Of a stretch of DNA of 64,000 nt, positions 42,259 to 61,559 are shown piece by piece. Position 1 is the stretch's first letter; each line of letters begins with the position of its first letter. Made by a program: the position numbers and the translations under genes. This stretch comes from Patescibacteria group bacterium (lineage in GTDB: Bacteria > Patescibacteriota > Patescibacteriia > 2-01-FULL-39-33): assembly GCA_041650895.1 (NCBI GenBank), contig JBAZKF010000001.1:145685-209684 (forward strand), written 5' to 3'. Below the pieces are notes generated by a model, which did not search any database, was not told the DNA's origin, and was given only the letters and a program-made list of their open reading frames with translations.

Positions 42259-43670
42259 GAAGTTTTAGTGGTAAACCATTTTATTATATTTTTCCTATTT
42301 TTCCATAGCTTACGCGTTGAGAAAAACGGGTGCGACAAATAATATTCTATTTTGGCTCGCCGGGCGAACTGAAAAATCTTTTCATAGCTTAAATCCGGCT
42401 GCTCAAAAATCGGCACATTAGCGCAGGACACTAATGGAGGATACGATCGTTTTTCTTCATAAAATTCCGCCCAGGAAAAATCATTTGGCAGGGTGCCGAT
42501 TTTTTTGGCCTCCAGCTCAATCGCAGTATGAGGATAAATCATCGTTAGGGTTTGAGTTGTCTCATCAACGCCCAGTTTGTTCTCCAAGTACCGACTCAAA
42601 AAAACAGTCTTCTTGATATCCGCGTAAGTTTCTCCCGGCAAACCATGCATGAAAAATACTTTTAATTTTATCCCCGCCCCCTTGATTATTTTTATAGCCT
42701 CAATCACCTGGCTGACGGTAATGGCCTTCCTGATATTCTTTAAAATTTCATCACTGCCTGACTCCGCCGCCATGGCAATATGCTCGCAACCGGCTCGCTT
42801 CATCCAATCAACCAACTCGGCATCAATATTATTGGCTCGAGCCTCGCACCACCAACTGACCTTTAATTCTCTGGCGATTATCTCCTGGCAAATTTCAATG
42901 ACACGCTGTTTATTCATCGTAAAACAATCATCAAAAAATCCAACGCCATCAAGTTTGTAAGTATTTAGCAGGAACTGTATTTCATCCACGACATTTTTAG
43001 CGCTCCGATAGCGGATGTTATGGCCCCACTGCTCCGCTGTGGAACAATAAACGCAATTATACGGACAGCCGCGACTACTGATAACACTGGTACAAATCTT
43101 CGTTGATAATGGTATAGTCTGGCGATATTCATTAATCGGAAGCAAGTCTCTGGCTGGCAACGGCAAACTGTCTAAATCGGCAATTGCTTGACGGTTGGCA
43201 TTATGGATTATCTCCCCCTGATTATTGCGATAAGATAAACCATTAACGCCAGATAGATCTTCCTTATTCGCAATAGCTTTAATTAATTCTAAAAAGGTCA
43301 ACTCCCCCTCTCCCCTGACAATCATATCAATTGACTTAATATGCTTTAGAGTATCACCGGCGGTCAGTGTTGGATGAGGTCCGCCGGCCACAATCGGCAC
43401 TGCCGGCAGATTGTTTTTAATCAGTTCGGCCAACTCAAAAGCATAAAAACGATTTTGCGTGCCAAACGACAACCCGACAATATCAGCGCCTTGTTCTTCT
43501 AGGATTTCAATAATCTTTTTGTTGTCGTACCTGTTGATAACACTATCAATAATATAAACATCATTAAAACCGTTTTCCCGCAAAACCGCAACTAACCACG
43601 CCAAACCGAGTGGCGGCATGGTTTCTTTTGTTTGATAAAGGGAGGGAGGAAAAATTAAAGCTATTTTCAT
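42255..43670 (-). CDS. B12-binding-domain radical SAM protein, paralog 5
   Basis: MKIALIFPPSLYQ..., LGLAWLVAVL, GGPHPT, SSRGCPYNCVYCSTAE. Confidence 0.85.
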   Translation of the reverse strand: MKIALIFPPSLYQTKETMPPLGLAWLVAVLRENGFNDVYIIDSVINRYDNKKIIEILEEQGADIVGLSFGTQNRFYAFELAELIKNNLPAVPIVAGGPHPTLTAGDTLKHIKSIDMIVRGEGELTFLELIKAIANKEDLSGVNGLSYRNNQGEIIHNANRQAIADLDSLPLPARDLLPINEYRQTIPLSTKICTSVISSRGCPYNCVYCSTAEQWGHNIRYRSAKNVVDEIQFLLNTYKLDGVGFFDDCFTMNKQRVIEICQEIIARELKVSWWCEARANNIDAELVDWMKRAGCEHIAMAAESGSDEILKNIRKAITVSQVIEAIKIIKGAGIKLKVFFMHGLPGETYADIKKTVFLSRYLENKLGVDETTQTLTMIYPHTAIELEAKKIGTLPNDFSWAEFYEEKRSYPPLVSCANVPIFEQPDLSYEKIFQFARRAKIEYYLSHPFFSTRKLWKNRKNIIKWFTTKTS

Positions 43671-43671
43671 A

Positions 43672-45021
43672 TTATTTTTTAAAAATCACTTCCTGCCAAA
43701 AAACCGGTTTATACCAATATCCTCGGCCGTATTTAAGGCGATTCTTATAATCCCTTAAGAACAATAAACTCCAAAAAGGCTTCAATTCGGTATTAATCAA
43801 TCCCGCATATTTTTCAATATTATTCCAATGCAACCTTTTACCGGGGAATTTATTTTTTATCCGCTCGAATAAAACGGTTCCAGGATAAGGGATAACGGGC
43901 AAAAATTGTTTAACTTGCAAATTATTTTCGACAATAAAATCTATAGTTTCTTTAATGGTCTGCCGATTTTCTCCCGGTGCGTTCAATAAAACACAATACC
44001 CTCCGGCTACGCCGTTCTCTTTTAAGATATCAATCGCCGATCGTAAATCTGCCGAAGTTATTTTTTTATTAATTTCAATTAAAACCCTGTCACTGGCGGA
44101 CTCCATGCCTAAATTTACATTAATACATCCGGCTCGCTTGACTAAAGGCATAATCCCCCTACTCTTAATGATATCAGTCGCCCGGGCATTGGCGCCCCAA
44201 GAAAACCTGAGGCCTCGATCAATGATAGCTGAACAAATCCTCTCTACCCTGTCGCCATCAATAAAAAATTCCCAGTCCTGAAAAAAAACTGATTTAATTT
44301 GAAAATTATTTATCAAGTACTCAATCTCTTCTATTACTTTTTCAACACTCCTAACAATATAACGTCCGGGCATCATGGCCTTAAGGCAGAAAACACAATT
44401 GTAAGGGCAGCCGCGCGAAGTCATTATGACAGAAAAAGGCTTCTCATAATCATTGCTGGAATATTTATCCATCGGCAACAGATCATAGGCCGGCAAAGGC
44501 AAAACATCCAGATCAATGATTCTCTCACTTGGATTATTCACGATTTTGCCGCCTTGACGATAAGACAAGCCGGAAACTTTCGAAAATGCCTGCTCTGCGG
44601 CCAGGGTAACAATCAAATCAGACGCGGATAATTCTGGCTCACCCCTGATAATAAAATCAACTTGGCAATTATCAAACACCCATTCTGGCATAGTGGTGCC
44701 GTGACTGCCGATCAATATTTTGTACTTAACCTTTACCCGGTCTATAATCTTAAAAATGTTTTCAATATGGGAATTAGGGCACTCCCAGCGGTCAATCGGC
44801 GTAGAGGTAATAATGAAGGCCTCGGGACCGAAATCATTGACTGCCTGGTAAATGGATTCTAACGGCAAATTCAAAACATTGGCATCCAATAATTTGATAT
44901 CGTGGCCGGCCTGCCTTAAAATAGAGGCGATAATAGCCATCGACAACGGCTGCCTGGCCCTGACATTCATAATTGACTTCTTCTCCTGGTTAAAATTAGG
45001 AATTAATAAAAATATTTTCAT
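43672..45021 (-). CDS. B12-binding-domain radical SAM protein, paralog 6
   Basis: TSRGCPYNCVFCLKAM. The start is probably MKIFLLIPNF at 45021 (or MINLIDK at 45042). The longer track ORF up to 45207 would overlap the upstream gene. Confidence 0.8.
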   Translation of the reverse strand: MKIFLLIPNFNQEKKSIMNVRARQPLSMAIIASILRQAGHDIKLLDANVLNLPLESIYQAVNDFGPEAFIITSTPIDRWECPNSHIENIFKIIDRVKVKYKILIGSHGTTMPEWVFDNCQVDFIIRGEPELSASDLIVTLAAEQAFSKVSGLSYRQGGKIVNNPSERIIDLDVLPLPAYDLLPMDKYSSNDYEKPFSVIMTSRGCPYNCVFCLKAMMPGRYIVRSVEKVIEEIEYLINNFQIKSVFFQDWEFFIDGDRVERICSAIIDRGLRFSWGANARATDIIKSRGIMPLVKRAGCINVNLGMESASDRVLIEINKKITSADLRSAIDILKENGVAGGYCVLLNAPGENRQTIKETIDFIVENNLQVKQFLPVIPYPGTVLFERIKNKFPGKRLHWNNIEKYAGLINTELKPFWSLLFLRDYKNRLKYGRGYWYKPVFWQEVIFKK

Positions 45022-45034
45022 TTTATCGATTAAG

Positions 45035-47599
45035 TTAATCATTGATATAAACCGCTTTGCAACATCTGGAACAAATCGGTAACGAATGCTTGAATAAATA
45101 TTGACGGAATTTTTGGTAATCATTGGACAGCCAAATCTCATCAGGAGTCTTATCCAATAAGCTCCCGAAAGATTTTTCAATGATATCGCACCAAACAACT
45201 TCGCCACGCTGATTAATGCGCAACTCGGGCTGCAATAATTTCAAACAAAAAGGCCGGGACGGTTTCTGACCCAAATACTGCGGTAAGTTATGATAATAAT
45301 TCAACGGAGAGAAATTAACAAAACAGCCAGTCTTAAGTCCGTACAATCTGATTTTAGCCAATTTTTTCTTCAACTCTACGGCGTCAGTATCAGGAGGAAA
45401 AATAGGATCCCTAATCTGCGTATTAAGGCGGTAATCGCGGCCCTCTTCCCAGCCAAACTCCCGATTAAAAATACTCTTGGCTTGAGCTACGTCGGCAGAT
45501 GAATAAACTTGCTCAAATAAGACATTAATTGTTGTAATGCCTAATTTTTTAGTGGTATCAATCAATTCAAAAAATTTATCTACATTATCATTAATTAACA
45601 AGGTGGCGAAAATGGTAATAGGAACTTTAGGCATTTTGGCCTGCAAAAGCTTAATGGCCCGCTCCAACCGATCAAAAGTACCCGGTACGCCCCTAATAGC
45701 GTCATGTAACTCCTTGGGACCGTCCAGCGAGGTTAGAATATCAGTCAGATGCTTATAACCCGCTAATTGATCAATATTACGCTCATTAATAAGCGTACAG
45801 TTAGTTTGAAGGATTACCCGTTTACCGAGAGAATCCCAAAAAGCAATAAGCTGCAAAATATCTTGGCGGGCGAATGGTTCGCCGCCGACTAATTTTATTT
45901 CTTCCACCTGGCTGGACATTTTTTTAAACACCTCAAGAATCTGTTCAGCTGACAATTCCTGCTGGCGTAAATTCCTATTCTCTCCTTGATAACACATCTT
46001 ACAACGCAAATTGCATCTGATGGTCGGTTCATAGCCGACTTCATAAACTAGCGGGGACTCGGTTTGAAAAGGCAGAGCCGGCGCTTGAATAAATTTTTTA
46101 ACCCTGATAATCGCCAACCTATTCCGCCGCCAATCATAAAATATTTTTGCCAGCGGAGAGATTATTGGCACGGCTTTTACCGCTTTTTTAAGCTGATGCT
46201 TATTATTTTTCAAATAAGTTAAGAATAATCCGCAATCATAAACTAAAGGCGAAAAGAAAAAGACATAAACCGGCAGGCGATAACGCGCCAAGACAAAGGG
46301 CGAGACCATCAAAGCGGTATACAGAATTATCATCACTGCAAAAATGAAAAATAGCAGTTTATCCCGATCTTTAAAATAAGAATAAATTAAGGCGATAGCC
46401 AAGGCCAGAGAACTAATACCCCATAAAGCAACACCGGCCAAATAAGTTAATAGTTTAAGATTAATCTGTTTGATGAAGTCAAAAATTCCCTGCCAGTTGC
46501 CATTCAAGATAAATCCGGTGATATCCGGTTTAGAAAACTCCCCAGTGCAAGCCGACCACATCTCGAAGTATCCGGGCTGAAAAAAGAAAGGTATTGTCCT
46601 AATCAGATGAACCTTAAGATAGCCGCCCAGATTGCCTAATATATAAGCCTTGGCCGTTTGACTGTAATAATCCAGCTCGCGATTGAATTCAGATAAGCTG
46701 ACTGACAGGCAATCGCCTTGATTGCCGATATTTTTCCCCAGAGCGCTATCGGCTTGCCGGACAATAAGATTATAAGCATCAGCGTAAGGAATTTGTCTCT
46801 GATAAGAGATCAGCGCTGGCAGATTATAAAAATAAATATTAGTATCAAATAGATTGACCAAAGCCGGCCGATTATAAACAACCTTATTCCTAATAATGAT
46901 CGGCGAAATCACCGCAAAAAATACAATCATGAAAGCAACACAACTTAACAAAATCTTGCGCCAACTCAACTTCGCCAATCCGCCGGTCGGTACGAGTTTC
47001 CGAACCAAATAAACTAAAACAAGACCGGCTGGAAATATTAAAAGCAAGGGGGAAGTATTTTGCCTAGCTAATGTTGAAATGCCGAGCCAAAAAGCGCTCA
47101 GCAACAAATCCCTGCTCTTAGCGCTGGAGAAAAATTTCAAAAAATAATATGTGCCGCCTAAAAATAACGGGATGGCCAAATTCTCGCTGACCAACAAAAA
47201 ATTATGCCAAGCCCAATAAGGTTCAATGGCAATCAAAAAAGTAACCAACAAAGAAATCTTCTCGTTAAAAAACAAGCGAACCAGCTTATAGCCGATGATT
47301 AAGGTCACGAAAGCCAAAACTACTTGCGCCAAATAAATCGTCCATTCCCCTCCCAACCAATGCAATAAGACCGAAGTCGTCAAGTAATACAATGGCGGAT
47401 GCCAATCACAGTAATCGTGAAAAATACCCAATAAAACAGAAACAGCCGGCTGAGCCTGGTTATAAAAATTCTGCCAACCGCCTTTATTTAAGCTGGCCTG
47501 CCAAAAAGTGATAAAAATTGAAATACGCACCGCCAGAAAAGCGGCGACAATGACCAGCCATGACCGATATTTAAAAACGATATTTCTTATATTTGACAT
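45035..47599 (-). CDS. Fusion protein: N-terminal polytopic GT-C-like membrane domain (ArnT/PMT_2, COG1807-like) plus a C-terminal radical SAM domain with a terminal Cys pair
   Basis: 854 aa. The N-terminal ~470 aa have about 12 TM helices and the DWHPPLYYL motif, which is characteristic of PMT_2/ArnT-like GT-C enzymes. The C-terminal domain carries YEPTIRCNLRCKMCYQGE (CxxxCxxC), LVGGEPF, SLDGPKELHDAIRGVPGTF and ...LPICSRCCKAV. Confidence 0.7.
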   Translation of the reverse strand: MSNIRNIVFKYRSWLVIVAAFLAVRISIFITFWQASLNKGGWQNFYNQAQPAVSVLLGIFHDYCDWHPPLYYLTTSVLLHWLGGEWTIYLAQVVLAFVTLIIGYKLVRLFFNEKISLLVTFLIAIEPYWAWHNFLLVSENLAIPLFLGGTYYFLKFFSSAKSRDLLLSAFWLGISTLARQNTSPLLLIFPAGLVLVYLVRKLVPTGGLAKLSWRKILLSCVAFMIVFFAVISPIIIRNKVVYNRPALVNLFDTNIYFYNLPALISYQRQIPYADAYNLIVRQADSALGKNIGNQGDCLSVSLSEFNRELDYYSQTAKAYILGNLGGYLKVHLIRTIPFFFQPGYFEMWSACTGEFSKPDITGFILNGNWQGIFDFIKQINLKLLTYLAGVALWGISSLALAIALIYSYFKDRDKLLFFIFAVMIILYTALMVSPFVLARYRLPVYVFFFSPLVYDCGLFLTYLKNNKHQLKKAVKAVPIISPLAKIFYDWRRNRLAIIRVKKFIQAPALPFQTESPLVYEVGYEPTIRCNLRCKMCYQGENRNLRQQELSAEQILEVFKKMSSQVEEIKLVGGEPFARQDILQLIAFWDSLGKRVILQTNCTLINERNIDQLAGYKHLTDILTSLDGPKELHDAIRGVPGTFDRLERAIKLLQAKMPKVPITIFATLLINDNVDKFFELIDTTKKLGITTINVLFEQVYSSADVAQAKSIFNREFGWEEGRDYRLNTQIRDPIFPPDTDAVELKKKLAKIRLYGLKTGCFVNFSPLNYYHNLPQYLGQKPSRPFCLKLLQPELRINQRGEVVWCDIIEKSFGSLLDKTPDEIWLSNDYQKFRQYLFKHSLPICSRCCKAVYIND

Positions 47600-47610
47600 A
47601 GTATTTTCTG

Positions 47611-49050
47611 TTATTGCTGCTTTTTACCGCTAAGGATCCACTCGCACAGTGCTAGAAATCCTAAAAAATAAATTTTAACGTGTTTCGGGCTTCTTAGACG
47701 TTTCACATAATTAAGGATAATCCGCGGACGAAAATAAAATTTACGGAAAAACAAGCGATTAGAAGCTATAAGTTCCTCCCGCGTCAAGCCGAACGGCACG
47801 AAAACCGGCTCCCATTCGTTCATTTTTTTCCAATCCTTATCAAAAGTCCCATACTGGGAATAATTGCCGCTGATTTCCGAACCGGGCAATGGCGTCATTA
47901 GAGTGCAATGGAATTCGTCAATTTTAAGTGACAGCGCAAAATCGATCGTTTCTTTGATCGTCTCGCGGGTTTCCCCGGGATGGCCCATGATAAAAAACGC
48001 GCCCACATCAATTCCTGCCCCCTTAGTCCAGTTGATAGCGCTTCTAATCTGCTCCTTAGTGGTGTTTTTCTTAATTAATTTTAAAATGTTTTCATTGCCT
48101 GATTCCACGCCATACCAAACCTGCCAACAGCCCGCCTCCTTCATTACTTTAAACATTTCCGGCTCAACCATATCAACGCGGGCTAAGGCTGTCCAGACCA
48201 AATCCAATTTTTTTTCTTTCAGCAGTTCGCAAAATTTGTAAAGACGCGGCTTAAAAACCGTAAAATTATCATCGCGAAACTGAATCTCCCTGATGCCGTA
48301 TTTATAATAAAGCAACAAGACCAGCTCCATCATATATTCCGCAGAATGAGCCGACAGGACGTTGCCATAAACGCTTCTAGTGCAGAATGTGCACTGACCA
48401 GGACAACCTCTTGAAGTAACTAAAGTTGAAGCGGGAAATTTTTTAACCGTATGAACCGGCGGAGAATATTTGACTAAATCGGGCAATAAATCAAAAGCCG
48501 GTTGAGGTAAGGCGTCAAGATCAATAATTCTGGCACGCGGCGCTGTAATAATAAATTCATCCGACACATCAGATTTAAAAATCAATCCATTAACCTGTCT
48601 TAACTGATCCTTGCTCAAGCCGTTTTGAGATAATATCGATAATAACTCAACCAAGGTCCTCTCACCCTCGCCGATAATCCCCAAATCGAATTTGGGATAA
48701 AGCTTCAGGGTTTCTTCCGGCGCCGTGCTCAAATGATGGCCGCCGATCAAAGTGATTATGCCAGGTTTGATCTTTTTAATTTCCCGAGCAACCGCCGCCG
48801 CGTTATCAATAGAGATAGTAACTGCCGTAAAACCAACAATGGCGGGATCGGCTGCCAAGACTCGTTCTGTAGTTGCAACGGTGCCCAAATCCATAATTTC
48901 CGCATCAATAATACTAACCTCATGACCCGCCGCCCTGACGGCAGCCGCCAAATATACCAGTCCCAAAGGAATAGACTCTCCCCCGCTTTTGCTTTTTATC
49001 CCATATCTTTCTTCTAAAGTTAATGGGGGTTGGACTAAAATTATTCTCAT
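47611..49050 (-). CDS. B12-binding-domain radical SAM protein, paralog 7
   Basis: MRIILVQPPLT..., LGLVYLAAAV, GGHHLS, TSRGCPGQCTFCTRS. Confidence 0.85.
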   Translation of the reverse strand: MRIILVQPPLTLEERYGIKSKSGGESIPLGLVYLAAAVRAAGHEVSIIDAEIMDLGTVATTERVLAADPAIVGFTAVTISIDNAAAVAREIKKIKPGIITLIGGHHLSTAPEETLKLYPKFDLGIIGEGERTLVELLSILSQNGLSKDQLRQVNGLIFKSDVSDEFIITAPRARIIDLDALPQPAFDLLPDLVKYSPPVHTVKKFPASTLVTSRGCPGQCTFCTRSVYGNVLSAHSAEYMMELVLLLYYKYGIREIQFRDDNFTVFKPRLYKFCELLKEKKLDLVWTALARVDMVEPEMFKVMKEAGCWQVWYGVESGNENILKLIKKNTTKEQIRSAINWTKGAGIDVGAFFIMGHPGETRETIKETIDFALSLKIDEFHCTLMTPLPGSEISGNYSQYGTFDKDWKKMNEWEPVFVPFGLTREELIASNRLFFRKFYFRPRIILNYVKRLRSPKHVKIYFLGFLALCEWILSGKKQQ

Positions 49051-49768: not shown

Positions 49769-50425
49769 TTATTTCTTTTTGCAAACTAAATAATAACCGC
49801 TAGTTAAAATGCCATTTTCCGGCCGGGAATGCCTGATATCGCCGAACTCACTCTTTATCGGCGAAGGCAGCCAAACCAATAATTTAACTAATAAAAATAA
49901 CGGGATTTTCATTAAGCGACCGCCGAATAAATTGGCTTGAAAACCTATTCTTTGTAATAAAGCGGCCAAAGTATCCTTAGTTGACAACTCATTGCGCAAT
50001 TCGATTATTTCCCAGCCGTCACTAAATAAAAACCTTAGGCCATACTTGGTAAAACGATAGTAATCATTGGGAATATCATGAAGAGGAAAAATAAACCTGG
50101 TAGTCAAAAGCAACACTCCGCCTGATTTCAGGACTCTTTTCATCTCGGCGACGGCTAAGTGAGGCGAATGCAAATGCTCCAGCAATTCAGTACATAAAAT
50201 CAGATCGAATTTATCATCGGTAAAAGGCAACTGATGAGCGTCGCCCACCACATCAACATTAATCCCCGGCCGATGGTCAAAACCGATGCGGTTGGGAAAT
50301 AAACTTTTGTAAGAACCGTCACCACAACCCAAATCAAGCACCAATTTTTCCGTTGACTGGTACTGGGCGATGAAAGCATCGATTTTTTTTCTGGTTATTT
50401 TGGCAGTTAGAAATTCTTTAATCAT
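49769..50425 (-). CDS. Class I SAM-dependent methyltransferase
   Basis: Motif I VLDLGCGDGSY. Motif II FDLILCTELLEHL. Confidence 0.75.
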   Translation of the reverse strand: MIKEFLTAKITRKKIDAFIAQYQSTEKLVLDLGCGDGSYKSLFPNRIGFDHRPGINVDVVGDAHQLPFTDDKFDLILCTELLEHLHSPHLAVAEMKRVLKSGGVLLLTTRFIFPLHDIPNDYYRFTKYGLRFLFSDGWEIIELRNELSTKDTLAALLQRIGFQANLFGGRLMKIPLFLLVKLLVWLPSPIKSEFGDIRHSRPENGILTSGYYLVCKKK

Positions 50426-50434
50426 TTTTGCCGT

Positions 50435-51553
50435 TTATGAATTAATGAAAGAGACGATTTTTTCAGCGCGCTTCTTCCAAGTATATTTTTCCGCATCGCT
50501 CCGGGCGCAACGAGAGATATTCTCGGCTAATTGCCGTTGCGTCAAAGCCCGGTTAATGCCCGCCGCTAAAAGATCAGAATTATCCGGCTCAACTAAAATA
50601 GCATTATTATCATTTAAAATTTCCCTCAAAGAAGGCAAATTAGAAGCGACTATAGGTACGCCACTGGCTAAATATTCAAAAAGTTTAAGCGGTGAAGTAT
50701 AAAATTGCGATATTTTTTCCTGCCCGGAATTAGGCAAAACCAAAACATCAGCGGCCTTCAGATAGAACGGGATTTGCTTATGCGGCTGATGGCCGAGAAT
50801 TAAGACATTAGCGCTATTGACATTTTTTTTCTTAAAAGCTTCAACATCTTCCTTAGTACCGCCGATAAAAACAACCAGGGATTCATTAGACAGATACCGG
50901 GCGGCTTCAGCCAAAACCTGCGCTCCTTTCCAACCATAAAGATGGCCGGTGTAAACAATCAATTTTTTATCCAACGGCAAATTAATTTTTTTCCTGGACT
51001 CCGTGGCGGTAATATTCAGATCAAACTCAGCCAAATCAACGCCATCGGGAGCAATTAATATTTTATCAGCAGCGATTCCGTTGCTGGCCAGAGCGGATTT
51101 AATAAAATCAGTCAGAACAACAATCCGTTGAAAACACCGCCAAAAAAGACGATGATACGATTTGATTGTTGCAGGCAAGGAGTGAAGTTCCAAAAAAGAC
51201 GATTTAAAAAATAAGCCGAACTGTTCTTCGCGTGTATATATAATATCATACTCCCTGAAAGACACGTAGATTCTGCTGGCTAACAAAAAAGTTGCAGTCG
51301 CCAGCCAAAAAGCCAGATTACCAATTGTTTTATCCAAAAAAATCAAATCTAAACAGGGTAATTCGGTAATCTTAAAATTAGCCGGTAAACCGTAATAGTT
51401 GAAGGGATCGGCTTTAAGATTATTAGAACGCCGCGGTACCACCAATTCAACTTGATGACCCAAAACAGAGAAAGTCTCGCACATTTTCATGATTTGCCAG
51501 CCATGAGCCTTCTCGGTCGGTATTCTGATGTTTGCCAAATAAATTATTTTCAT
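50435..51553 (-). CDS. GT4-family glycosyltransferase
   Basis: The start is probably MKIIYLANIRIPTEKAHGWQIMKMCETFSVLGHQVELVVPRR at 51553, a 4-nt overlap with the upstream stop. The C-terminal half is GT-B fold. Confidence 0.75.
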   Translation of the reverse strand: MKIIYLANIRIPTEKAHGWQIMKMCETFSVLGHQVELVVPRRSNNLKADPFNYYGLPANFKITELPCLDLIFLDKTIGNLAFWLATATFLLASRIYVSFREYDIIYTREEQFGLFFKSSFLELHSLPATIKSYHRLFWRCFQRIVVLTDFIKSALASNGIAADKILIAPDGVDLAEFDLNITATESRKKINLPLDKKLIVYTGHLYGWKGAQVLAEAARYLSNESLVVFIGGTKEDVEAFKKKNVNSANVLILGHQPHKQIPFYLKAADVLVLPNSGQEKISQFYTSPLKLFEYLASGVPIVASNLPSLREILNDNNAILVEPDNSDLLAAGINRALTQRQLAENISRCARSDAEKYTWKKRAEKIVSFINS

Positions 51554-53709
51554 TTTTTTGTTTTTACTAAATAACACATTTGATGGCCGAACATATTAGG
51601 CCAAATATCTTTAAGACGAAAACCATTAGACGATTTAAATCTAACAACATCTAGACCCAAATCATTCAGCCAAATCAAAAAATCCTTATGGCTCCAAAAC
51701 CGCAGGTGTTCTGACGGATGTGTCATCCATTGGGTAAAAAATCTTCCTCCAAACATTAAGCCGAAACGATAACGGTAAAAAGCGGAATTAGGAACTGAAA
51801 TTGCCAAATAGTCGGCATTATCTTTTATTTTAGAGATTAAATCCTCGGGATATTTGATGTGTTCCAAAACCTCTGAAATCACAATGTAATCATATCGGTC
51901 GTCCAAATTAAAATCAGCGCTCTCGATATCGGCTTTTACTCCGTCAATGCCGGCTTGCTTTAAGTTATTGATTACTAATCCGGAAATATCCAAACCACTG
52001 ACCCGGCAACCCTTCTTTTCTTTTAATTCATAAGGCAGACGCGAACTGCCACAGCCAAGATCCAGAATTTTAGCTCCGGGCTTAATCCAATCCATAAAAA
52101 TCACTTCCCTTTCCATTAATTTGCTACGCATCTTGAAGCCGCGCTCTGACCAATACTGATCATAATCAAGTTGTTTGGTGATATTTTTGAAATCAGGGCG
52201 ACGCGTACCCTCAAAGAAGAACGATTTCGAGACGCGAGCTATGATTTTGTCAAAATAATACTTAAGCGCGCGCTTGACTTTGAATAATATAAAATCTAAA
52301 CGCTCTTTTTTGTTACCCAACTTAAGCCAGATTTTTGCCAGCTTCAAAAAGTGGGTTAAGCCTCTCTTTTTTACGCCCTCAAATATCTCCTGACGCCAAC
52401 TCTCAAATAATTTTCCCAACTCCTGGGAATCACTGACGCCAGAACGATTGAATTTGTCCTGGCTTTGGAAAAAAGAGAAATTACAATAATCGGAGGTATT
52501 GATACGACCCTTAAAAAAATCATTAAAAAGCTTCGTCCCTGGCAGGGCGGTAAAGATACTGAAAGAATAATGATCAGCTTTGATTTTCTTGGCGAATTCA
52601 AAGGTTTGCCGCATTTCTTCTTTAGTTTCGCCGGGCAGGCCGATCATAAAGCCGGCTTCGCGACGGATGCCGTGTTTCCGGCAAAGTTCCAGGGCTTTTT
52701 CCACATCGGATAATTTTATCCTTTTATTAATGATTTCATCTAAAACGCGCTGATTACCCGATTCAACGCCAAAATCAAGCTGTAAACAGCCACTTTCGGC
52801 CATTAACTTGATGATTTCTTCATTAACCAAATCCACTCGCGATTGAGCCCCCCAATACAGACCGGCTTCCTTCATAATCTGGCAAACCTTCCTAACATGA
52901 TCGTAATTAGCCGTTAAGGTATCATCAGCAAACCAAATTCCTTCAACGCCATATTTATCCCTTAAAAGATAGATTTCTTTTTTGATGTTTTCCAAACTGC
53001 GATAACGCACCTGACGCCCAAAAACCTGATTGCAGGCGCAAAAAGTGCAGCTGTAGGGACAGCCCCGGGAAGCCATAACCATCACCGCTTTCATAGGGAT
53101 GCCTCGGATAATATCGTCCCAGATCTTAGTATAGTAGGTCATATTCACCTTATCATAAGCCGGCAAGCTTAAATCAGTCAGATCCATATACTCCCGCCGT
53201 TCATTGATGACAACTTCATTATTCTGATCCGGCCAGGCGATGCCCTTCACCTTCCTTAGATCGGGCGACTCCTGCTGTAATTCCTTAATTAATTCAAAAG
53301 TAGTTTGTTCGCCTTCGCCGATAATGGCGGCATCAAAGCCGGAATTAACTACGCCAATCGGATCGGCTGTAGCTTGAGGCCCGCCGATAATCGAAAAAAC
53401 TTTGAGTTCTTTTTTAATCCTCTGATTCATTTCCACAGCTTCGGCAATTTCCATGGTCGTGGCAGTAAAACCGATTACTTGCGGCTTAAACTCTAAAACA
53501 GCCTTAATGATCTCCTCCTTGGCTCTTTCACGATTATCGTATTGATAGCCTCTGTCCGCGAATATTTTCCCGTCGATAATCAAATTATCAAAACCATGAT
53601 CCCGCAAATATCCGGAAATATACATCAAACCCAAAGAATAACGATGCTCCTTGAGCCGTTTAGGGGGAAGAATAAAAATCAAATCTTTATCTTGGCTAAT
53701 TTTTATCAT
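51550..53709 (-). CDS. Fusion: B12-binding-domain radical SAM protein (paralog 8) plus a C-terminal class I SAM-dependent methyltransferase domain
   Basis: 719 aa. Residues 1-470 contain IIGGPQAT and ASRGCPYSCTFCACNQ. Residues ~480-719 contain ILDLGCGSSRLPYEL (motif I), GLDIS and DYIVISEVLEHIKYP (motif II). Confidence 0.8.
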   Translation of the reverse strand: MIKISQDKDLIFILPPKRLKEHRYSLGLMYISGYLRDHGFDNLIIDGKIFADRGYQYDNRERAKEEIIKAVLEFKPQVIGFTATTMEIAEAVEMNQRIKKELKVFSIIGGPQATADPIGVVNSGFDAAIIGEGEQTTFELIKELQQESPDLRKVKGIAWPDQNNEVVINERREYMDLTDLSLPAYDKVNMTYYTKIWDDIIRGIPMKAVMVMASRGCPYSCTFCACNQVFGRQVRYRSLENIKKEIYLLRDKYGVEGIWFADDTLTANYDHVRKVCQIMKEAGLYWGAQSRVDLVNEEIIKLMAESGCLQLDFGVESGNQRVLDEIINKRIKLSDVEKALELCRKHGIRREAGFMIGLPGETKEEMRQTFEFAKKIKADHYSFSIFTALPGTKLFNDFFKGRINTSDYCNFSFFQSQDKFNRSGVSDSQELGKLFESWRQEIFEGVKKRGLTHFLKLAKIWLKLGNKKERLDFILFKVKRALKYYFDKIIARVSKSFFFEGTRRPDFKNITKQLDYDQYWSERGFKMRSKLMEREVIFMDWIKPGAKILDLGCGSSRLPYELKEKKGCRVSGLDISGLVINNLKQAGIDGVKADIESADFNLDDRYDYIVISEVLEHIKYPEDLISKIKDNADYLAISVPNSAFYRYRFGLMFGGRFFTQWMTHPSEHLRFWSHKDFLIWLNDLGLDVVRFKSSNGFRLKDIWPNMFGHQMCYLVKTKK

Positions 53710-54775
53710 ATTTGTTTTTGGGGCCTAATAACTCTTCAATAAGACCGCCATCTAACAATTGTTTGACTAAAATTTCCGGCCGGCATAATCGGCAATAAAT
53801 CTCATAACCATTATCGGCGATTTTTTCATAATTTATTCTACCCTCTTTCAGCGCTAAGATTTTAGACGCCAAATCCTGGGCATCGGCCAAACGGCAAAAA
53901 ACCGCATCTTGGCCGTCCGTAAGCAATTCCCTGATAGCCGAAGAATCACCGGTCAAAACCGGCCGCTTGGCCGCTAAGCCCTCATAAACCTTATTAGGGA
54001 TAACTCTTTTAGCTTTATCAGTATGGCCGAATATACCTAGGCAAACATCAGCCTCCGCCAAATAGCCCCTTAAATTATCAATGGACACGGGCTCTATAAA
54101 ATTAACATTACTGACTTTAAGCCGGCTCGCCAAGTCAATTATTTCCCGGTAAGTCTGACCGTGGCCGATAATATTAAATTTGATATTTTCCCCCTCTAGA
54201 ATTTTCGTCGCTTCAATAATATACTCTATGCCCTGTAAAGGAATAAAACTGCCATGAAAATGAACCAAAAAATAATCTTTTTTCTTAGGAGTAATAGGAA
54301 AAATAACCTTATCATCACAACCGACTAAAACCCGATAAAACTTTTTTCTCTCCAACTTTAATTCTTTTACAAAATAGTCAATCTGGGCATTGGTATCCAA
54401 TAAAATTTTATCCGCCAAACGGCAGGATAACCAATCCAATAACCAGTAATACCTTCCTTTAAGGCTTTGCGCTTTAACGATTTTCCTATCTTCAACCATG
54501 GAATCAAAAAAAGAGTAAAAAGCGTCAAAAACAATCGGTTTAACGGTTAAAAGCCTGGCCAAAATCATGGCCTGAAACCCCGGAAAACCAACGATCATAA
54601 TATCATATTTCTTACGGATTGACCAGTGTTTTTTAATTAAATCCCAATACTTCAACGGCCCTTTGACGCTTGTTCGGCATTCAATCACATCAACGCCGTT
54701 TAACTTAAAACCGCCAAGCAAAATCCTATTGCGGCTATAATCAGGATCATAAATTCCGAAATAACAAATAATCAT
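53696..54775 (-). CDS. GT-B fold glycosyltransferase (GT4-like)
   Basis: MIICYFGIYDPDYSRNRILLGGFKLNGVDVIEC is an N-terminus typical of a GT4 subfamily. A Rossmann-like C-terminal half follows, with EGLAAKRPVLTGDSSAIRELL. Confidence 0.55.
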   Translation of the reverse strand: MIICYFGIYDPDYSRNRILLGGFKLNGVDVIECRTSVKGPLKYWDLIKKHWSIRKKYDIMIVGFPGFQAMILARLLTVKPIVFDAFYSFFDSMVEDRKIVKAQSLKGRYYWLLDWLSCRLADKILLDTNAQIDYFVKELKLERKKFYRVLVGCDDKVIFPITPKKKDYFLVHFHGSFIPLQGIEYIIEATKILEGENIKFNIIGHGQTYREIIDLASRLKVSNVNFIEPVSIDNLRGYLAEADVCLGIFGHTDKAKRVIPNKVYEGLAAKRPVLTGDSSAIRELLTDGQDAVFCRLADAQDLASKILALKEGRINYEKIADNGYEIYCRLCRPEILVKQLLDGGLIEELLGPKNKYDKN

Positions 54776-55514: not shown

Positions 55515-56589
55515 AGGCTTTTTTGATATTAACGACTAAATTTTTAATACTATAAGAAGCTACGACAATGCGACGCAACTCAACAGCCATAACCTGCTTC
55601 TCGGATGAATCCAATTCAGACAATTTCTTTATTTTGACCGCCAATTCCCGACTGTCAGCTTTTTCCAATAATAACAAATCTTGGTAGTCGCCCAGGATCA
55701 CGGAAAAAGTTTGATTATAAACTACGGCCGGCACGCCACAGGCCAACGATTCCAAAACCACTTTGTCCAATCCCCCGGTGGGGCACAAGTTAATGCTTAA
55801 ATCGGCTTGCTGATAATAATAAGGCAGGTCCTTATTGGGGATATTGCCTATCCAATCAATATAATCTTCCAGTCGGCGTTTTTTTATTTCCTCTTTCAAT
55901 AAGGCAGCGTATCTCAAACCATCAAGATTCGGCGGTGAGCCGATAAAAGACAAGGTGATATTTTTTATTCCTAATTCATGCACCAAAATATCAACAGCTT
56001 TAATCAATAATAATTGATTTTTTATTTCGCTGATCCGGCCGACGCTGACGATTTGTAATTTATCCTGTCGAGCCGTCGCCCAATCTTTAAGACAGAATTT
56101 ATCAATATCAATGCCATGGCCGACGATTTTCACTTTGGCACTAGCAAGCCGGAAACTTTCGGGCGAGGCGGTAAAAATAATATCAGCCAACAATTCAGCT
56201 AATCTTAATTTAAAATTAACCGCTTTATGCGCATACCAGAGGCCGATAATTTTGCCCTGCAAACGCCAGATCAAACCAGCCAGAATGACATAAACAACAT
56301 TCATGTGAACAAAAACAGCATCATAATCATGGCGAACCAACCATAAATATTTATAAAAACGCCACAAGTAACGCCAACGCGACGGCCTGTCTTCCTTGCC
56401 CAAAGATAAAACCCTGACATTGGCAGGCAAATCATACTTACCTTTATATAGGCAGATAACAGTCACTTGAGAAAAATTATTGGCAAACTCTTTAAGCCAA
56501 TCATGAAAAAATCCCAACAGACCGTCGGCGTCATCCACTTTCTGAGTCAAGATTAATAATTTCAATTTTTTATTTTTTGGCAATGGCAT
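55498..56589 (-). CDS. GT4-family glycosyltransferase
   Basis: ILTQKVDDADGLLGFFHDWLKEF N-terminus. C-terminal ESLACGVPAVVYNQT. Confidence 0.7.
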   Translation of the reverse strand: MPLPKNKKLKLLILTQKVDDADGLLGFFHDWLKEFANNFSQVTVICLYKGKYDLPANVRVLSLGKEDRPSRWRYLWRFYKYLWLVRHDYDAVFVHMNVVYVILAGLIWRLQGKIIGLWYAHKAVNFKLRLAELLADIIFTASPESFRLASAKVKIVGHGIDIDKFCLKDWATARQDKLQIVSVGRISEIKNQLLLIKAVDILVHELGIKNITLSFIGSPPNLDGLRYAALLKEEIKKRRLEDYIDWIGNIPNKDLPYYYQQADLSINLCPTGGLDKVVLESLACGVPAVVYNQTFSVILGDYQDLLLLEKADSRELAVKIKKLSELDSSEKQVMAVELRRIVVASYSIKNLVVNIKKAYGEEN

Positions 56590-57172
56590 ATAAATTCAAA
56601 CCTAATTCGAAGCTGCCGCCGGTGATTTTATCGGCCGCAAAGCCGGTGGCGGAAAACTGTTTAAATAATTCCTGTCGACTATAGAACTGCTGATGCTCAC
56701 CGATCTCATCCGGTGAAACTATTTTAAACGCGGCCAATAACGACAGCAGACCCTTAGTTTTTCCCCAGGGAGTCGTCACTATAAGCAACCCGCCGGGAAC
56801 AAGCGCTCGATAAGATTGAGCCAGAATATTTAAAGCCGCGGTTTCATCCAAATGTTCCAAAACTGCCAGCATGGTTACAACATTAAAACAACTGGGACTG
56901 ACCGGCAAATTATCGCCGGTTTTGAATTCGTATTTTTTTAAGCTAACTCCGTCGATCATTCCTTCGCTGACCGATTTATCCAATCCGACTTTGGCCGAAA
57001 ACTTAACCTGCGCCAAAAAATAAGGATAAGAACCGCAGCCGATATCAAGAATAGCTCCCGACCTTAAATCAGCAGGAATCAACCTGTCAACTTTATTAGC
57101 CCGACGCCGGGCCAAGTATTTCTCTAAGACGCCATACCCCCTGGTAGGAGCGGCGGAACCGGTTATTTCCAT
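56570..57172 (-). CDS. Class I SAM-dependent methyltransferase
   Basis: Motif I ILDIGCGSYPYF. VVTMLAVLEHL. Confidence 0.75.
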   Translation of the reverse strand: MEITGSAAPTRGYGVLEKYLARRRANKVDRLIPADLRSGAILDIGCGSYPYFLAQVKFSAKVGLDKSVSEGMIDGVSLKKYEFKTGDNLPVSPSCFNVVTMLAVLEHLDETAALNILAQSYRALVPGGLLIVTTPWGKTKGLLSLLAAFKIVSPDEIGEHQQFYSRQELFKQFSATGFAADKITGGSFELGLNLYAIAKK

Positions 57173-57873: not shown

Positions 57874-59346
57874 TTAATCGCGTTTAGTATTGATGTCCGG
57901 AGATTTAGGCAAGAAAAAAGAGACTAAAGCCATAAAACCATCAAACAAAATTTTTATATCGTCTAATGATCTAATGCTAAAAATCTTCTTAAGGATGAAT
58001 TTCGGACGAAAATAAAAACTGCGATACATGATTTTATATAAATTCTTTATTTCTTCCGCTGAAAGATTCTCCAATCTCATAACCGGCTTAGCCAAATTAA
58101 AATCATCCCAATTTTCGCTCAACAACAAATCACGTTCCTTGGCCCAATTAAACATGGCCGTGCCGGGAAACGGCGTAGTAATATTGACGATCAGCAAATC
58201 GGGATTTATTTTCTTAACAAAACGGATGTTCTTTTCAATCACTTGGCGACTGTCGCCGGGATTGCCGACCATGAAAGCCAGACGGCATTCTATCCCCGCC
58301 TGCTTAGTCCATTTGACGGCATTGATCACTTGCGGCAAATTGATTTTTTTATTGATATTCTTCAATACGGCCTCATCAACATTTTCCACCCCATACATGA
58401 TCTGATGACAACCGGCGTCTGACATTTTCCGCAACATGGCCTCGTCAACATAATCAACTCGGGCAAAACACGTCCAAGACAAATCCATTTTATTTTTTAT
58501 CAGCAGATCGCACAAGTCAATGACGTTCTGACGAAAAACAGTAAAAGTATCATCATAAAACATGATCTGCCTGATACCGTAATTATCGGCCAAGTATTTT
58601 ATCTCGGCAAAAATCCCGGTGGCCGACTTAAAGATCATCTGATCACCCAAGGTTTTATTGCAGAAAGTGCAACGCCCCGGACAACCTCGGCTAGTCATTA
58701 AACTCATGGCCGGCAACTTCTTATACGAGCCCTTAGCCGGCCGATATTTATCAATCGGCAATAAATCATAAGCCGGCAAAGGCAGATCATCCAAATTGGC
58801 AATCCGCCGACGCGGCGCGTTACGGATTATTTGTTTTTCGCCATTCAATTCTTTCTTATAAACCACGCCGTCAATCTCTTCAATCTTCTTGCCGGATAAT
58901 ATTTCTCCCAAAGTAATCTCCCCTTCGCCGATAACCACCGCATCAACAAATGGTTGATTAATAACCTCATCAGTAACAAAGGTTGCATGAACGCCACCGA
59001 AAATAATCAAAGCATTAGGATAATATAATCGGCAAATTTCCGCCGCCTGATAAGCCTTTTTAATTTGTCCGGTGGTGGCAGTAAAGCCGATCACTCTAAT
59101 ATCCCTGTGATGATCAACAAAATTTTCCTTTAGATAATCGCCGAAGGCCTGGACCGAGGGGCAGGAAACTTCACAATCAATTATCTCTACACTTTGATCC
59201 TGTTGACGGACATAGCCGGCAATGGAAGCCAGCCCCAAAGGAGGGAAATTTGAGTTAATCTCACGCCAAATATTATTCTCATCGCCATAATAATCAGGCG
59301 GAGCGATCAACAAACAATCCAAATTTTTTTGATTATCTTGCGACAT
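57874..59346 (-). CDS. B12-binding-domain radical SAM protein, paralog 9
   Basis: LGLASIAGYV, GGVHAT, TSRGCPGRCTFCNKT. Confidence 0.85.
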   Translation of the reverse strand: MSQDNQKNLDCLLIAPPDYYGDENNIWREINSNFPPLGLASIAGYVRQQDQSVEIIDCEVSCPSVQAFGDYLKENFVDHHRDIRVIGFTATTGQIKKAYQAAEICRLYYPNALIIFGGVHATFVTDEVINQPFVDAVVIGEGEITLGEILSGKKIEEIDGVVYKKELNGEKQIIRNAPRRRIANLDDLPLPAYDLLPIDKYRPAKGSYKKLPAMSLMTSRGCPGRCTFCNKTLGDQMIFKSATGIFAEIKYLADNYGIRQIMFYDDTFTVFRQNVIDLCDLLIKNKMDLSWTCFARVDYVDEAMLRKMSDAGCHQIMYGVENVDEAVLKNINKKINLPQVINAVKWTKQAGIECRLAFMVGNPGDSRQVIEKNIRFVKKINPDLLIVNITTPFPGTAMFNWAKERDLLLSENWDDFNLAKPVMRLENLSAEEIKNLYKIMYRSFYFRPKFILKKIFSIRSLDDIKILFDGFMALVSFFLPKSPDINTKRD

Positions 59347-59351
59347 AGCTT

Positions 59352-61559
59352 TTAAAGGAATCGACTAAAAAACGCTCTGAATCCGTCACTGGTCAACAAC
59401 CATAAATAGTCAACCAAAACAATAACGATAACGACCGCAACCCGACTCGGCCAGCGGTAAAAATATTTTCTTAACCCGTTAACGGCCAACAAGGTTAATA
59501 GCAAAGCCAGGACAAAATACAAACGAGATGACACACCGGTCCAAAGCAAAAACATAAACGACGGCAGAATCAGGCACTTAACCAGGAACCTCTGATCGGC
59601 GGTAAACTCCCGCCATTTAATCAATCCTAACGGCACCAAAAGCCAAGCAGCCAGATAAACGCCGACGATACTCTTAACAACAAAAAACGGCTGATATTCG
59701 GAACCGCTGGGAGCGCTAATGCCCAGTTTATACCAATCCAAATATGAATAATGATAAATGAAATAAACCACGATTTGCCAAGCGATTAAGGGCAAGCCGA
59801 CCGCTAAGGTTGATAAAAATAATTTTTTGAGTTTTTCGGCTCGAGGCAGTTGCGGATGGAAACATATCACCAGATACAGGAAAGCCATACCCAAACTGCT
59901 ATATTCTTTCCATAACATGCCAACAACAACCATCAACGAAGTTAAAAATAAATTAAAGTTGTTAGGCCGTTTATAAAATCTAATGACGCCGATAGCGGCC
60001 AAAACCCAGAATAATTGGGCGCCCGACTCGGTAAACAAATCCAAGCCATACTTAAGTAACGGATAGGAAGAAATATAAATCAACGCTCCCAGAAGCGCCA
60101 TTCCTCTATTTTTAAAAAACAAATAAAATAAAACGTAAACGGCTAAAGCCAAAAAAACATAAAATATAATCGCCTCTATCTCAAAAGCTAACGATAGATT
60201 GCCACCGGTTAAAAACGACAGTCCGGCAATACCCATAGGCCCCAACGGTTTTAAAATTCTGGAAGGAAAACTCTCCGCCATTTGTCCCATAAACAGCTTA
60301 GCCGTTTCCATATACTGATAAGCATCGCCGTTAATGCTAAAACCGACAAAATTGAGCCGAATAAACACGTTCAACGCTACCGCGGTTAAGATTAAAAGAA
60401 TCGGCCAAAAATGATTATTGGTCGACTTGGTCGGCCGGCACTTTTTGTCTATGGCTGTTTGCCAGCTTTTCAGATAAAGCGCCAAATTTTCCTCTCGGCC
60501 GGGCAAAATGTTAATCGCCGATTCGGCCGACTGGCTGAGTTGCCGGCGCAAGCCAATATTCTGAATAATCTTTTTCATGGCGTCAGCTAATTTTTCTTCG
60601 TCGCCAACGGGCGTGATTAATGCGCTGACTCCGTCTTTCAACACCTCACCGGCGCAACCGACATCAGTCATCACTACCGCCAAACCGCAACTGGCGGCTT
60701 CTATTATCACCATCCCCCAACCCTCATAATCAGAACTCAAAACATAACTATCGGCTGAGTTGTAATAATCATAAATATTGTCAGTCCAACCGATCAAAAA
60801 GATTTTATCCTCCAAGCCGGATTCTTTTATTTGTTGGGCGAGTTTGTCTTTTTCCGGACCGCGACCGACTATAAGCAAAACCGCCTCCGGCAATTGCCGG
60901 GCAACCGTGGCGAAAGCTCTGATCAGCAACGGCAGATTTTTCTGTTTTACCAATCGAGCCATAGTCAAAAAAACAGTTTTGCCGACTAAGCGGCCGAAAA
61001 TCTCCGGCTTAGTTTCGCTGAATTGCTTCTCGGGCTTAACATAGACAGGAACAACAACAATTTTATCTTCGGCTATATGCAAATCATTAACCAAAGTATC
61101 CTTTATCCGCTCACTGACTGCGCGCACGCTGTCGGCTCGCTTAATCAGCCAGCGCCCCAGATAATAACGGCAAAAGTTAATAGGATTTTCATTGCGCCAA
61201 TAAGTCGCGCTAAAAAAATCGCCATGTTCCTGAATATTCAAAGCGCTCTTGAATTTCCTAGCCAGCAATAATCCCATCAGCGACAATTCAAAAGGATCTT
61301 GAACCGTTATGACATCATAATTATTCTGGCGGAACAGTTTTTTCGCTAACCGATACATATTGAATAGTGCCGCTAATCGGTTGCCGCCACCCGTGCCGTA
61401 AGCCGTTACTTTTTCTGATAATTTAATTTCTTGCGCTGGCGTAGCGGGCACGATAATATCATAAGCGTCCGTCATAACGCCATACTCAATCAAACGCCGA
61501 GTTACGGGTGATGAGGAAACGAATACGCCTTTATCGGTGCCTAAGTTTAATACTTTCAT
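59352..61559 (-). CDS. Fusion: N-terminal GT4 (GT-B) glycosyltransferase plus a C-terminal ~350-aa polytopic membrane domain
   Basis: 735 aa. Residues 1-380 form a GT-B fold with EAASCGLAVVMTDVGCAGEVLKDG. Residues ~385-735 contain about 10 predicted TM helices (NHFWPILLILTAVALNVF...). Confidence 0.7.
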   Translation of the reverse strand: MKVLNLGTDKGVFVSSSPVTRRLIEYGVMTDAYDIIVPATPAQEIKLSEKVTAYGTGGGNRLAALFNMYRLAKKLFRQNNYDVITVQDPFELSLMGLLLARKFKSALNIQEHGDFFSATYWRNENPINFCRYYLGRWLIKRADSVRAVSERIKDTLVNDLHIAEDKIVVVPVYVKPEKQFSETKPEIFGRLVGKTVFLTMARLVKQKNLPLLIRAFATVARQLPEAVLLIVGRGPEKDKLAQQIKESGLEDKIFLIGWTDNIYDYYNSADSYVLSSDYEGWGMVIIEAASCGLAVVMTDVGCAGEVLKDGVSALITPVGDEEKLADAMKKIIQNIGLRRQLSQSAESAINILPGREENLALYLKSWQTAIDKKCRPTKSTNNHFWPILLILTAVALNVFIRLNFVGFSINGDAYQYMETAKLFMGQMAESFPSRILKPLGPMGIAGLSFLTGGNLSLAFEIEAIIFYVFLALAVYVLFYLFFKNRGMALLGALIYISSYPLLKYGLDLFTESGAQLFWVLAAIGVIRFYKRPNNFNLFLTSLMVVVGMLWKEYSSLGMAFLYLVICFHPQLPRAEKLKKLFLSTLAVGLPLIAWQIVVYFIYHYSYLDWYKLGISAPSGSEYQPFFVVKSIVGVYLAAWLLVPLGLIKWREFTADQRFLVKCLILPSFMFLLWTGVSSRLYFVLALLLTLLAVNGLRKYFYRWPSRVAVVIVIVLVDYLWLLTSDGFRAFFSRFL

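Follow-up and report, generated by a model that had tools for sequence, protein, structure and literature searches.

In the conversion of gentamicin A2 to X2, one sugar ring is aminated, N-methylated and then C-methylated by GenD2, the aminotransferase GenS2, GenN and GenD1, of which GenN, an S-adenosylmethionine (SAM) N-methyltransferase, and GenD1, a cobalamin radical SAM (rSAM) C-methyltransferase, act at adjacent positions of the same sugar (PMC4340712). Here we analyse a gene in which the same two kinds of domain are joined in one open reading frame (ORF), located at 51550-53709 on the reverse strand of a 64,000-nt stretch (the window) from the groundwater-type genome of a Patescibacteria group bacterium (GTDB lineage Bacteria; Patescibacteriota; Patescibacteriia; 2-01-FULL-39-33; GenBank assembly GCA_041650895.1, contig JBAZKF010000001.1, positions 145,685 to 209,684). 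With a probability of roughly 0.5, we read its product as an enzyme that is truly bifunctional and takes part in tailoring within a cell-surface glycan pathway, in a member of the Patescibacteria resembling Candidatus Buchananbacteria. GenD1 and GenN are plausibly its closest characterised functional analogue, since in each case an rSAM protein with a B12-binding domain (B12-rSAM) and a class I methyltransferase would act on neighbouring positions of an already attached sugar, and since relatives of the window gene lie beside a DegT aminotransferase, a methyltransferase and, in locus L093, a short-chain dehydrogenase/reductase (SDR). The likeness is one of function and gene set, with no close sequence relationship shown, and whereas GenD1 and GenN are separate proteins of an actinomycete antibiotic pathway, the window encodes one polypeptide in a surface-glycan locus and contains no aminotransferase gene.

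Three other described proteins resemble one half or the other. MgmA/QCMT, the glutamine C-methyltransferase of methyl-coenzyme M reductase (9CCB, TIGR04014), is the best sequence match and shares over aa ∼1-440 the layout of B12 domain, rSAM core and small C-terminal domain, but it has a protein substrate and no methyltransferase fusion, and the window protein is not a member of its family. AprD4 (6FD2), the radical SAM 1,2-diol dehydratase of apramycin biosynthesis, is similar in fold and has an aminoglycoside sugar as substrate, but it binds no cobalamin (PMC12931638), aligns in sequence over the core alone, and its family model NF033070 gives the window protein 115 bits against a cutoff of 500. 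MetW (PF07021/TIGR02081), the methyltransferase-fold partner of the homoserine O-acyltransferase MetX, resembles the C-terminal half, which passes the Pfam MetW gathering threshold but lies in a glycan biosynthesis context.

RESULTS

One reading frame carries both domains

The ORF starts with ATG and encodes 719 aa with zero internal stops, as also seen by direct reading of the junction DNA. Its N-terminal part matches the B12-binding model PF02310 (57.2 bits versus a gathering cutoff of 32.1) and then the Radical_SAM model PF04055 (109.8 bits versus 29.5). Together with the CxxxCxxC motif and a fold match to rSAM structures, the latter places this half in the radical SAM superfamily, and the three cysteines of C217-P-Y-S-C221-T-F-C224 (CPYSCTFC) are invariant across 20 orthologues. 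The C-terminal part matches the MetW model PF07021 over its full length (aa 538-715, 72 bits versus 21, E = 5.6e-20), while Methyltransf_23, 11, 12, 25 and 31 also score above their cutoffs (PF13489, E = 3.1e-16); with these six Pfam models and the motifs LDLGCGSS, VSGLDIS and DYIVISEVLEH, the domain belongs to the class I methyltransferases. A preliminary description, made from the sequence alone, had proposed just such a single 719-aa polypeptide, an intact B12-domain/rSAM module followed by a canonical Rossmann methyltransferase, and both domains as well as every motif that it quoted (IIGGPQAT, ASRGCPYSCTFCACNQ with its CxxxCxxC, ILDLGCGSS and DYIVISEVLEHI) were found in the ORF; its reservation that the C-terminal domain might lack SAM-binding motifs falls away, motifs and profiles both being present.

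The junction, which the description had put near nt 52270, is roughly there, the domain boundary lying at aa ∼497, nt ∼52,220. Orthologues of the N-terminal half are mostly 490-500 aa long and end in "...KRAIKYLLNKFGFKFAIN", aligned to aa ∼480-495, and the stand-alone orthologues of the C-terminal half start at "FYFRGTRKPNF", aligned to aa ∼498. From these alignments the protein is an end-to-end fusion, with a linker of at most ∼10 aa at the junction (DKIIARVSKSFFFEG, aa ∼489-503). An AlphaFold2 model built from 51 sequences has a mean predicted local distance difference test score (pLDDT) of 90.1, and aa 497-503 is the sole segment below 50; within the methyltransferase domain the block means are mostly >83, falling to 53-63 at aa ∼641-670. 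The predicted TM-score (pTM) is 0.71, too low to fix how the domains are oriented relative to each other.

The fusion is real and maintained by selection

An identical protein is deposited at NCBI (MFA5124393.1, "radical SAM protein [Patescibacteria group bacterium]", on a 957,791-bp contig), and an independent 6,158-bp metagenome contig of the Joint Genome Institute (JGI), differing from the window by 4 nt, encodes the identical protein as well. Fused orthologues of 719-722 aa with 77-88% identity are present in four other assemblies, several of them named Candidatus Buchananbacteria. Compared with the 87% identical orthologue of L010 (loci and proteins of relatives are designated by L and P numbers), both genes have 719 codons with zero indels, and 230 synonymous versus 95 non-synonymous codon differences were counted. 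Across the junction (codons 471-530), 33 changes fell on third, 12 on first and 6 on second positions. This third-position bias and the absence of indels indicate translation of the frame across the junction, under purifying selection.

The preliminary description had named a sequencing error merging two adjacent genes, such as a missed stop or frameshift, as the finding that would undo it. Most orthologues are indeed unfused, yet no support for an artefact of sequencing or assembly was found, and the identical ORF in an independent assembly, the five divergent fused orthologues free of indels and the codon-position bias at the junction rule it out for practical purposes, so that we regard its probability as negligible. 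The bifunctional architecture is hence an unbroken frame that recurs in independent assemblies and is kept by selection.

The radical SAM half resembles both methylases and a dehydratase

Among solved structures, MgmA/QCMT (9CCB, E = 2e-29) and AprD4 (6FD2, E = 5e-28) come closest in sequence; in fold, the closest are MgmA (TM 0.74) and AprD4 (TM 0.75), followed by TsrM, OxsB, CysS and TokK. Assignment to a named family was rejected, as the equivalog cutoffs were missed and the sequence and fold searches of the PDB tied a methylase with a dehydratase. The "class B" label given earlier to this half, putative in its strict sense of a methyltransferase, holds insofar as an N-terminal B12-binding domain precedes the rSAM core, with a fold that superposes on MgmA, TsrM, OxsB, CysS and TokK; a match to an NCBIfam equivalog did not accompany it.

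AprD4 and ArsL have similar domains and bind no cobalamin (PMC12931638). The N-terminal domain of the window protein aligns to the B12 domains of the BchE, ApyD, MgmA family, PhpK and HpnJ models, whereas the alignment to AprD4 comprises the core alone, and putative cobalamin binding is favoured because this domain matches those of genuine cobalamin enzymes. No motif is diagnostic of cobalamin binding, and the GGPQAT site (aa 109-114, nt ∼53368-53385) is uninformative in this respect: all C-terminally fused proteins and also P0044 read GGPQAT, most unfused orthologues read GGPHVT or GGSHAT, and MgmA reads GGPVSM at the aligned site.

Since the reaction type of a B12-rSAM cannot be read from structural features (PMC12931638) and the methylase and dehydratase matches are tied, the comparison does not discriminate between reaction types for this half. 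The same fusion could serve glycan tailoring with an rSAM half that does not methylate but carries out an AprD4-like 1,2-diol dehydration, an epimerisation, an oxidation or a C-C bond formation, the C-terminal domain being the sole source of methylation. AprD4 being one of the two best matches, the BchE, HpnJ and AprD4 family models scoring level with the methylase models, the lack of a feature that distinguishes non-methylating members (PMC12931638) and the presence of ten paralogues in one locus, suggestive of diversified chemistry, all speak for this alternative; against it stand the restriction of the AprD4 likeness to the rSAM core, the match of the N-terminal domain to true B12 domains, and the fact that each B12-rSAM group with a characterised member includes C-methyltransferases (PMC12931638). 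We consider it the strongest of the competing explanations, albeit on balance unlikely. Given a role in glycan tailoring, cobalamin-mediated C-methylation is the most likely reaction of the rSAM half, at even odds or slightly better.

The methyltransferase half is MetW-like but not MetW

By its motifs, profile matches and modelled fold (class I methyltransferase 3CC8, TM 0.70), the C-terminal domain is a standard class I methyltransferase, whose polar target would be an oxygen or a nitrogen. JGI names the protein MetW, owing to the Pfam threshold that it passes. True MetW was rejected, as TIGR02081 gives 69.9 bits against a cutoff of 189.5 and the neighbours are glycosyltransferase genes, with no metX beside it; the domain is a subfamily of MetW-like fold, not MetW proper.

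Both halves occur as separate genes, and such fusions recur

The proteins fused at the C-terminus group in a single clade; they are 77-89% identical among themselves and no more than 66% identical to the unfused orthologues. For the methyltransferase half, stand-alone orthologues number more than 100 cluster representatives of 222-230 aa, with 50-73% identity over 97-100% of the segment, and examples of 53-73% identity share an operon with a B12-rSAM in relatives. Such a methyltransferase gene lies two genes 3′ of the true rSAM orthologue (57%) in L007 and ∼5 kb downstream of the rSAM orthologue in L011, and in L009 and L090 it stands directly behind a non-orthologous B12-rSAM paralogue. L090 was considered as a freshly split version of the fusion and rejected, its rSAM being a different paralogue with 26% identity. 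Its methyltransferase (P0121, L090 2414-3166) is the closest stand-alone relative of the window domain (73% identity) and carries an N-terminal extension of ∼25 aa, FFKLKYYWGKLVKKINQP, that resembles the rSAM tail at the window junction; this extension may derive from a fused ancestor or from recombination between modules.

Other combinations were observed as well. In L001, from a different sub-clade of the rSAM orthogroup, a separate gene immediately upstream encodes a methyltransferase of a second subfamily, 29-34% identical to the window domain, and in P0009 (L006, 727 aa) this second subfamily is fused to the N-terminus of the rSAM, with a read-through linker that precedes the original methionine of the rSAM; in L093 the gene that overlaps the start of the rSAM orthologue encodes a methyltransferase of a third subfamily. 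As the preliminary description had asked of the databases, the same architecture was found elsewhere: the top 150 representatives from a library of 1.84 billion proteins include four further fusions of a B12-rSAM with a class I methyltransferase, in both orders (P0087, P0244, P0293, P0299). Like P0009, these combine the same two domain kinds and are likewise uncharacterised, but they are independent events with other methyltransferase subfamilies, and their rSAM halves, that of P0009 excepted, are only 29-36% identical to the window protein. Downstream of P0087 lies a polysaccharide deacetylase gene. Four giant proteins of 1,900-2,300 aa (P0246, P0247, P0249, P0254) contain four or five separate B12-rSAM module matches each and look like concatenated radical SAM enzymes. 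A scan of GTDB genomes with the orthologue profile returned only ∼5 true orthologous loci, the remainder being distant B12-rSAMs, many archaeal, with none fused to this methyltransferase family.

These comparisons suggest that the two domain kinds are associated recurrently rather than in strict one-to-one pairs. That the halves act together is strengthened because orthologues of both occur as separate genes in similar loci, and because a second fusion in the opposite order within the rSAM orthogroup and unrelated fusions elsewhere were found. The earlier proposal is in this sense partly supported: the fusion is genuine and conserved, and its separate-gene co-occurrence and recurrence strengthen the case for joint action, leaving dual-chemistry methylation by the fused protein plausible.

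The fusion could instead be a neutral by-product of operon compaction, for example by deletion of a DegT gene, with the domains acting independently on different glycan residues. The gene order rSAM-DegT-(MT)-MetW-MT-GT (MT, methyltransferase; GT, glycosyltransferase) in L007 and L009 would permit it, as loss of the middle genes would join the ends, and the pairing of the methyltransferase orthologue with different rSAM paralogues in L009 and L090, the disordered linker and the moderate pTM are in keeping with it. However, the fusion persists through a clade whose members are as little as 77% identical, its junction being under purifying selection, and a second independent fusion in the orthogroup and at least four in unrelated B12-rSAMs argue for a selective advantage, which makes mere compaction improbable.

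The fused gene lies in a radical SAM-rich surface-glycan locus

The fused gene is flanked by glycosyltransferase genes on both sides, to which it is translationally coupled by its overlapping start and stop (Table 1). The order GT1-rSAM-GT4 is kept in L001, L004, L006, L092 and L093, and a small methyltransferase gene follows GT4 in L004, L092 and the window, that of L004 and L092 being of a different subfamily.

Pfam scans of the window placed the gene within a surface-glycan locus, 45 kb or more in length, that continues beyond the end of the window. Its content includes a Bac_transf initiating transferase, a Wzx-like flippase, ∼15 GT1/2/4/9 genes, two polysaccharide deacetylases, a FemAB-like acyltransferase, an LPG_synthase_TM gene, ten B12-domain rSAM paralogues, one plain rSAM and one PMT_2-rSAM-SPASM fusion. 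As in a Wzx/Wzy-type locus, Bac_transf (23051-24400) and Polysacc_synt (38217-39551) genes are accompanied by GT1/2/4/9 genes throughout; no polymerase was identified in these scans. Across 27833-63013 the ten paralogues alternate with glycosyltransferase genes. The three further methyltransferase genes that the preliminary description had assigned to the same operon do exist; because the one starting at 25307 is read from the other strand as part of a divergent transcription unit, it belongs to the same locus and not to the same operon.

Table 1. Coordinates of the features discussed; positions refer to the window except where a locus is named
Feature	Position	Strand	Description	Evidence
Fused rSAM-methyltransferase gene	51550-53709	-	719 aa: B12-binding domain, radical SAM core, helical C-terminal domain, MetW-like class I methyltransferase	
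B12-binding (Rossmann) domain	53298-53637	-	aa 25-137, contains GGPQAT and GEGE	PF02310
Radical SAM core	52591-53070	-	aa 214-373, C217-x3-C221-x2-C224	PF04055
Fusion junction	52201-52245	-	aa ∼489-503, DKIIARVSKSFFFEG	Alignment, DNA reading, low-pLDDT linker, third-position-biased substitutions
MetW-like class I SAM methyltransferase domain	51553-52221	-	aa 497-719, motif I LDLGCGSS, motif II DYIVISEVLEHI	
GT1-family glycosyltransferase, upstream	53696-54775	-	Stop 14 nt inside the fused gene	Pfam, sequence
GT4/GT1 glycosyltransferase, downstream	50435-51577	-	Likely ATG at 51553, ATGA overlap with the TGA stop of the fused gene	Pfam, sequence
Stand-alone class I methyltransferase after the GT4 gene	49769-50425	-		Pfam
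Methyltransferase gene	56570-57172	-		Pfam
Methyltransferase gene	25307-26011	+		Pfam
Surface-glycan locus	19258-64000		Runs off the window, at least 45 kb	Pfam scans
Ten B12-domain rSAM paralogues	27833-29251 (+), 29255-30682, 35551-36975, 39562-41058, 42255-43670, 43672-45207, 47611-49050, 51550-53709, 57874-59346, 61568-63013			
Plain rSAM	33498-34586			
PMT_2-rSAM-SPASM fusion	45035-47599	-	854 aa: PMT_2 (GT-C membrane glycosyltransferase) aa 67-218, Radical_SAM 523-681, SPASM 790-846	
DegT aminotransferase beside B12-rSAM and methyltransferase	L007 1432-5687; L009 2358-5669; L092 3453-6034; L093 810-7482			

In relatives, the rSAM orthologue is repeatedly found beside a DegT/DnrJ/EryC1 sugar aminotransferase and a methyltransferase, with an SDR in addition in L093, and L008 and L009 also carry RmlA-D-like genes. 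This bears on a further explanation, in which the substrate is not a sugar but a lipid or carrier (polyprenyl phosphate, membrane lipid), or else some protein or peptide that the locus acts on. Several of the best-scoring models describe B12-rSAMs that modify lipids or peptides (HpnJ, HpnR, the ladderane lipid rSAM, ApyD, MgmA) and the LPG_synthase_TM gene would fit, but the model scores lie far under the family cutoffs, glycosyltransferases are coupled on both sides, and the gene of relatives adjoins those for nucleoside diphosphate-sugars (DegT, RmlA-D-like). Such a substrate therefore seems a distant prospect, less probable than compaction.

Several other features of the locus and its counterparts were recorded. 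The PMT_2-rSAM-SPASM ORF is a second unusual rSAM fusion in the locus. It overlaps by 173 nt the ORF at 43672-45207 (-), a 511-aa B12-rSAM in which the Pfam B12 domain starts no earlier than aa 87, so that the GTG start is probably miscalled too far upstream. The ORF 59352-61559 (-) encodes a 735-aa GT1/GT4 protein whose C-terminal ∼390 aa have no Pfam match, and the 611-aa ORF 31653-33488 (-) has no Pfam match at all; proteins of ∼580 aa that likewise lack Pfam matches and are similar to these adjoin PMT_2 genes in L004 and L006. A gene pair encoding a VTC-domain protein and DUF4956 recurs 3′ of the rSAM/GT block beside a Wzx-like flippase (L001 8802-10248, L092 10433-11935, L093 10482-11991) and was not seen in the window.

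DISCUSSION

In the model that we favour, the gene would have arisen by end-to-end joining of a gene for a ∼495-aa B12-domain rSAM, always flanked by two GT-B glycosyltransferase genes, with one for a ∼225-aa MetW-like methyltransferase. After a glycosyltransferase has added a sugar to a lipid-linked oligosaccharide, the rSAM half would reductively cleave SAM at its [4Fe-4S] cluster and abstract a hydrogen from an unactivated sugar carbon, to which a methyl group would then most probably be delivered from methylcobalamin (C-methylation). The methyltransferase half might next transfer a methyl group from a second SAM, by SN2 chemistry, to an adjacent hydroxyl or amino group on that sugar residue. 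In this scheme, the fusion would hold the two activities at 1:1 and hand the intermediate directly across. Cobalamin binding, C-methylation, the shared substrate, the order of the steps and the choice of oxygen or nitrogen are the conjectural parts of this scheme.

Several observations weigh against it. The rSAM half reaches no NCBIfam equivalog (ApyD, 181 bits versus 750; BchE, 158 versus 481; HpnJ, 151 versus 578; MgmA family, 136 versus 360), its fold is equally close to the non-cobalamin dehydratase AprD4 and to the methylase MgmA, and according to a 2026 review, non-methylating B12-rSAMs are indistinguishable from alkylating ones by structural features (PMC12931638). The pairing of the halves is loose: the methyltransferase orthologue also adjoins non-orthologous rSAM paralogues (L009, L090), and no methyltransferase of the window subfamily was found near the rSAM orthologues in L004/L013 and L012. 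A pTM of 0.71 and a disordered linker give no support for a fixed interface between the domains. No DegT aminotransferase occurs among the window ORFs scanned with Pfam, so the analogy to GenS2/GenN is incomplete here. Finally, cobalamin synthesis is not known from Patescibacteria, and this one is presumably incapable of it.

Both domain kinds are already known, the architecture recurs, and the protein is already public under a generic name. A literature search, itself incomplete in coverage, found no rSAM/class I methyltransferase fusion characterised or described, and no report of rSAM-rich glycan loci in Patescibacteria or of rSAM C-methylation of capsular polysaccharides. A more far-reaching possibility, which we hold tentatively and rate below even the non-methylating alternative, is that the protein is the first dedicated "double methylase", equipping one sugar, once transferred, with both a radical C-methyl and a polar O- or N-methyl group, within an undescribed modular locus in which units of glycosyltransferase, B12-rSAM and optional methyltransferase are repeated ∼ten times and produce a methylated surface polymer with heavy carbon branching, in an ultra-small bacterium obliged to scavenge its cobalamin.

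The fusion ties a B12-rSAM orthogroup and a MetW-like methyltransferase, both from large and poorly characterised families, to one pathway, that of surface-glycan tailoring. Hardly any work has addressed radical SAM chemistry on bacterial polysaccharides, and one soluble polypeptide with both activities would offer biochemists a convenient way in. Arguably, the locus of ten B12-domain rSAMs set among glycosyltransferases is more remarkable than the fusion itself: a contig of ∼958 kb spends 45 kb or more, and ten enzymes of putative cobalamin dependence, on the cell surface, and so large an rSAM investment bears on how episymbiotic ultra-small bacteria interact with their hosts and rely on these for cofactors.

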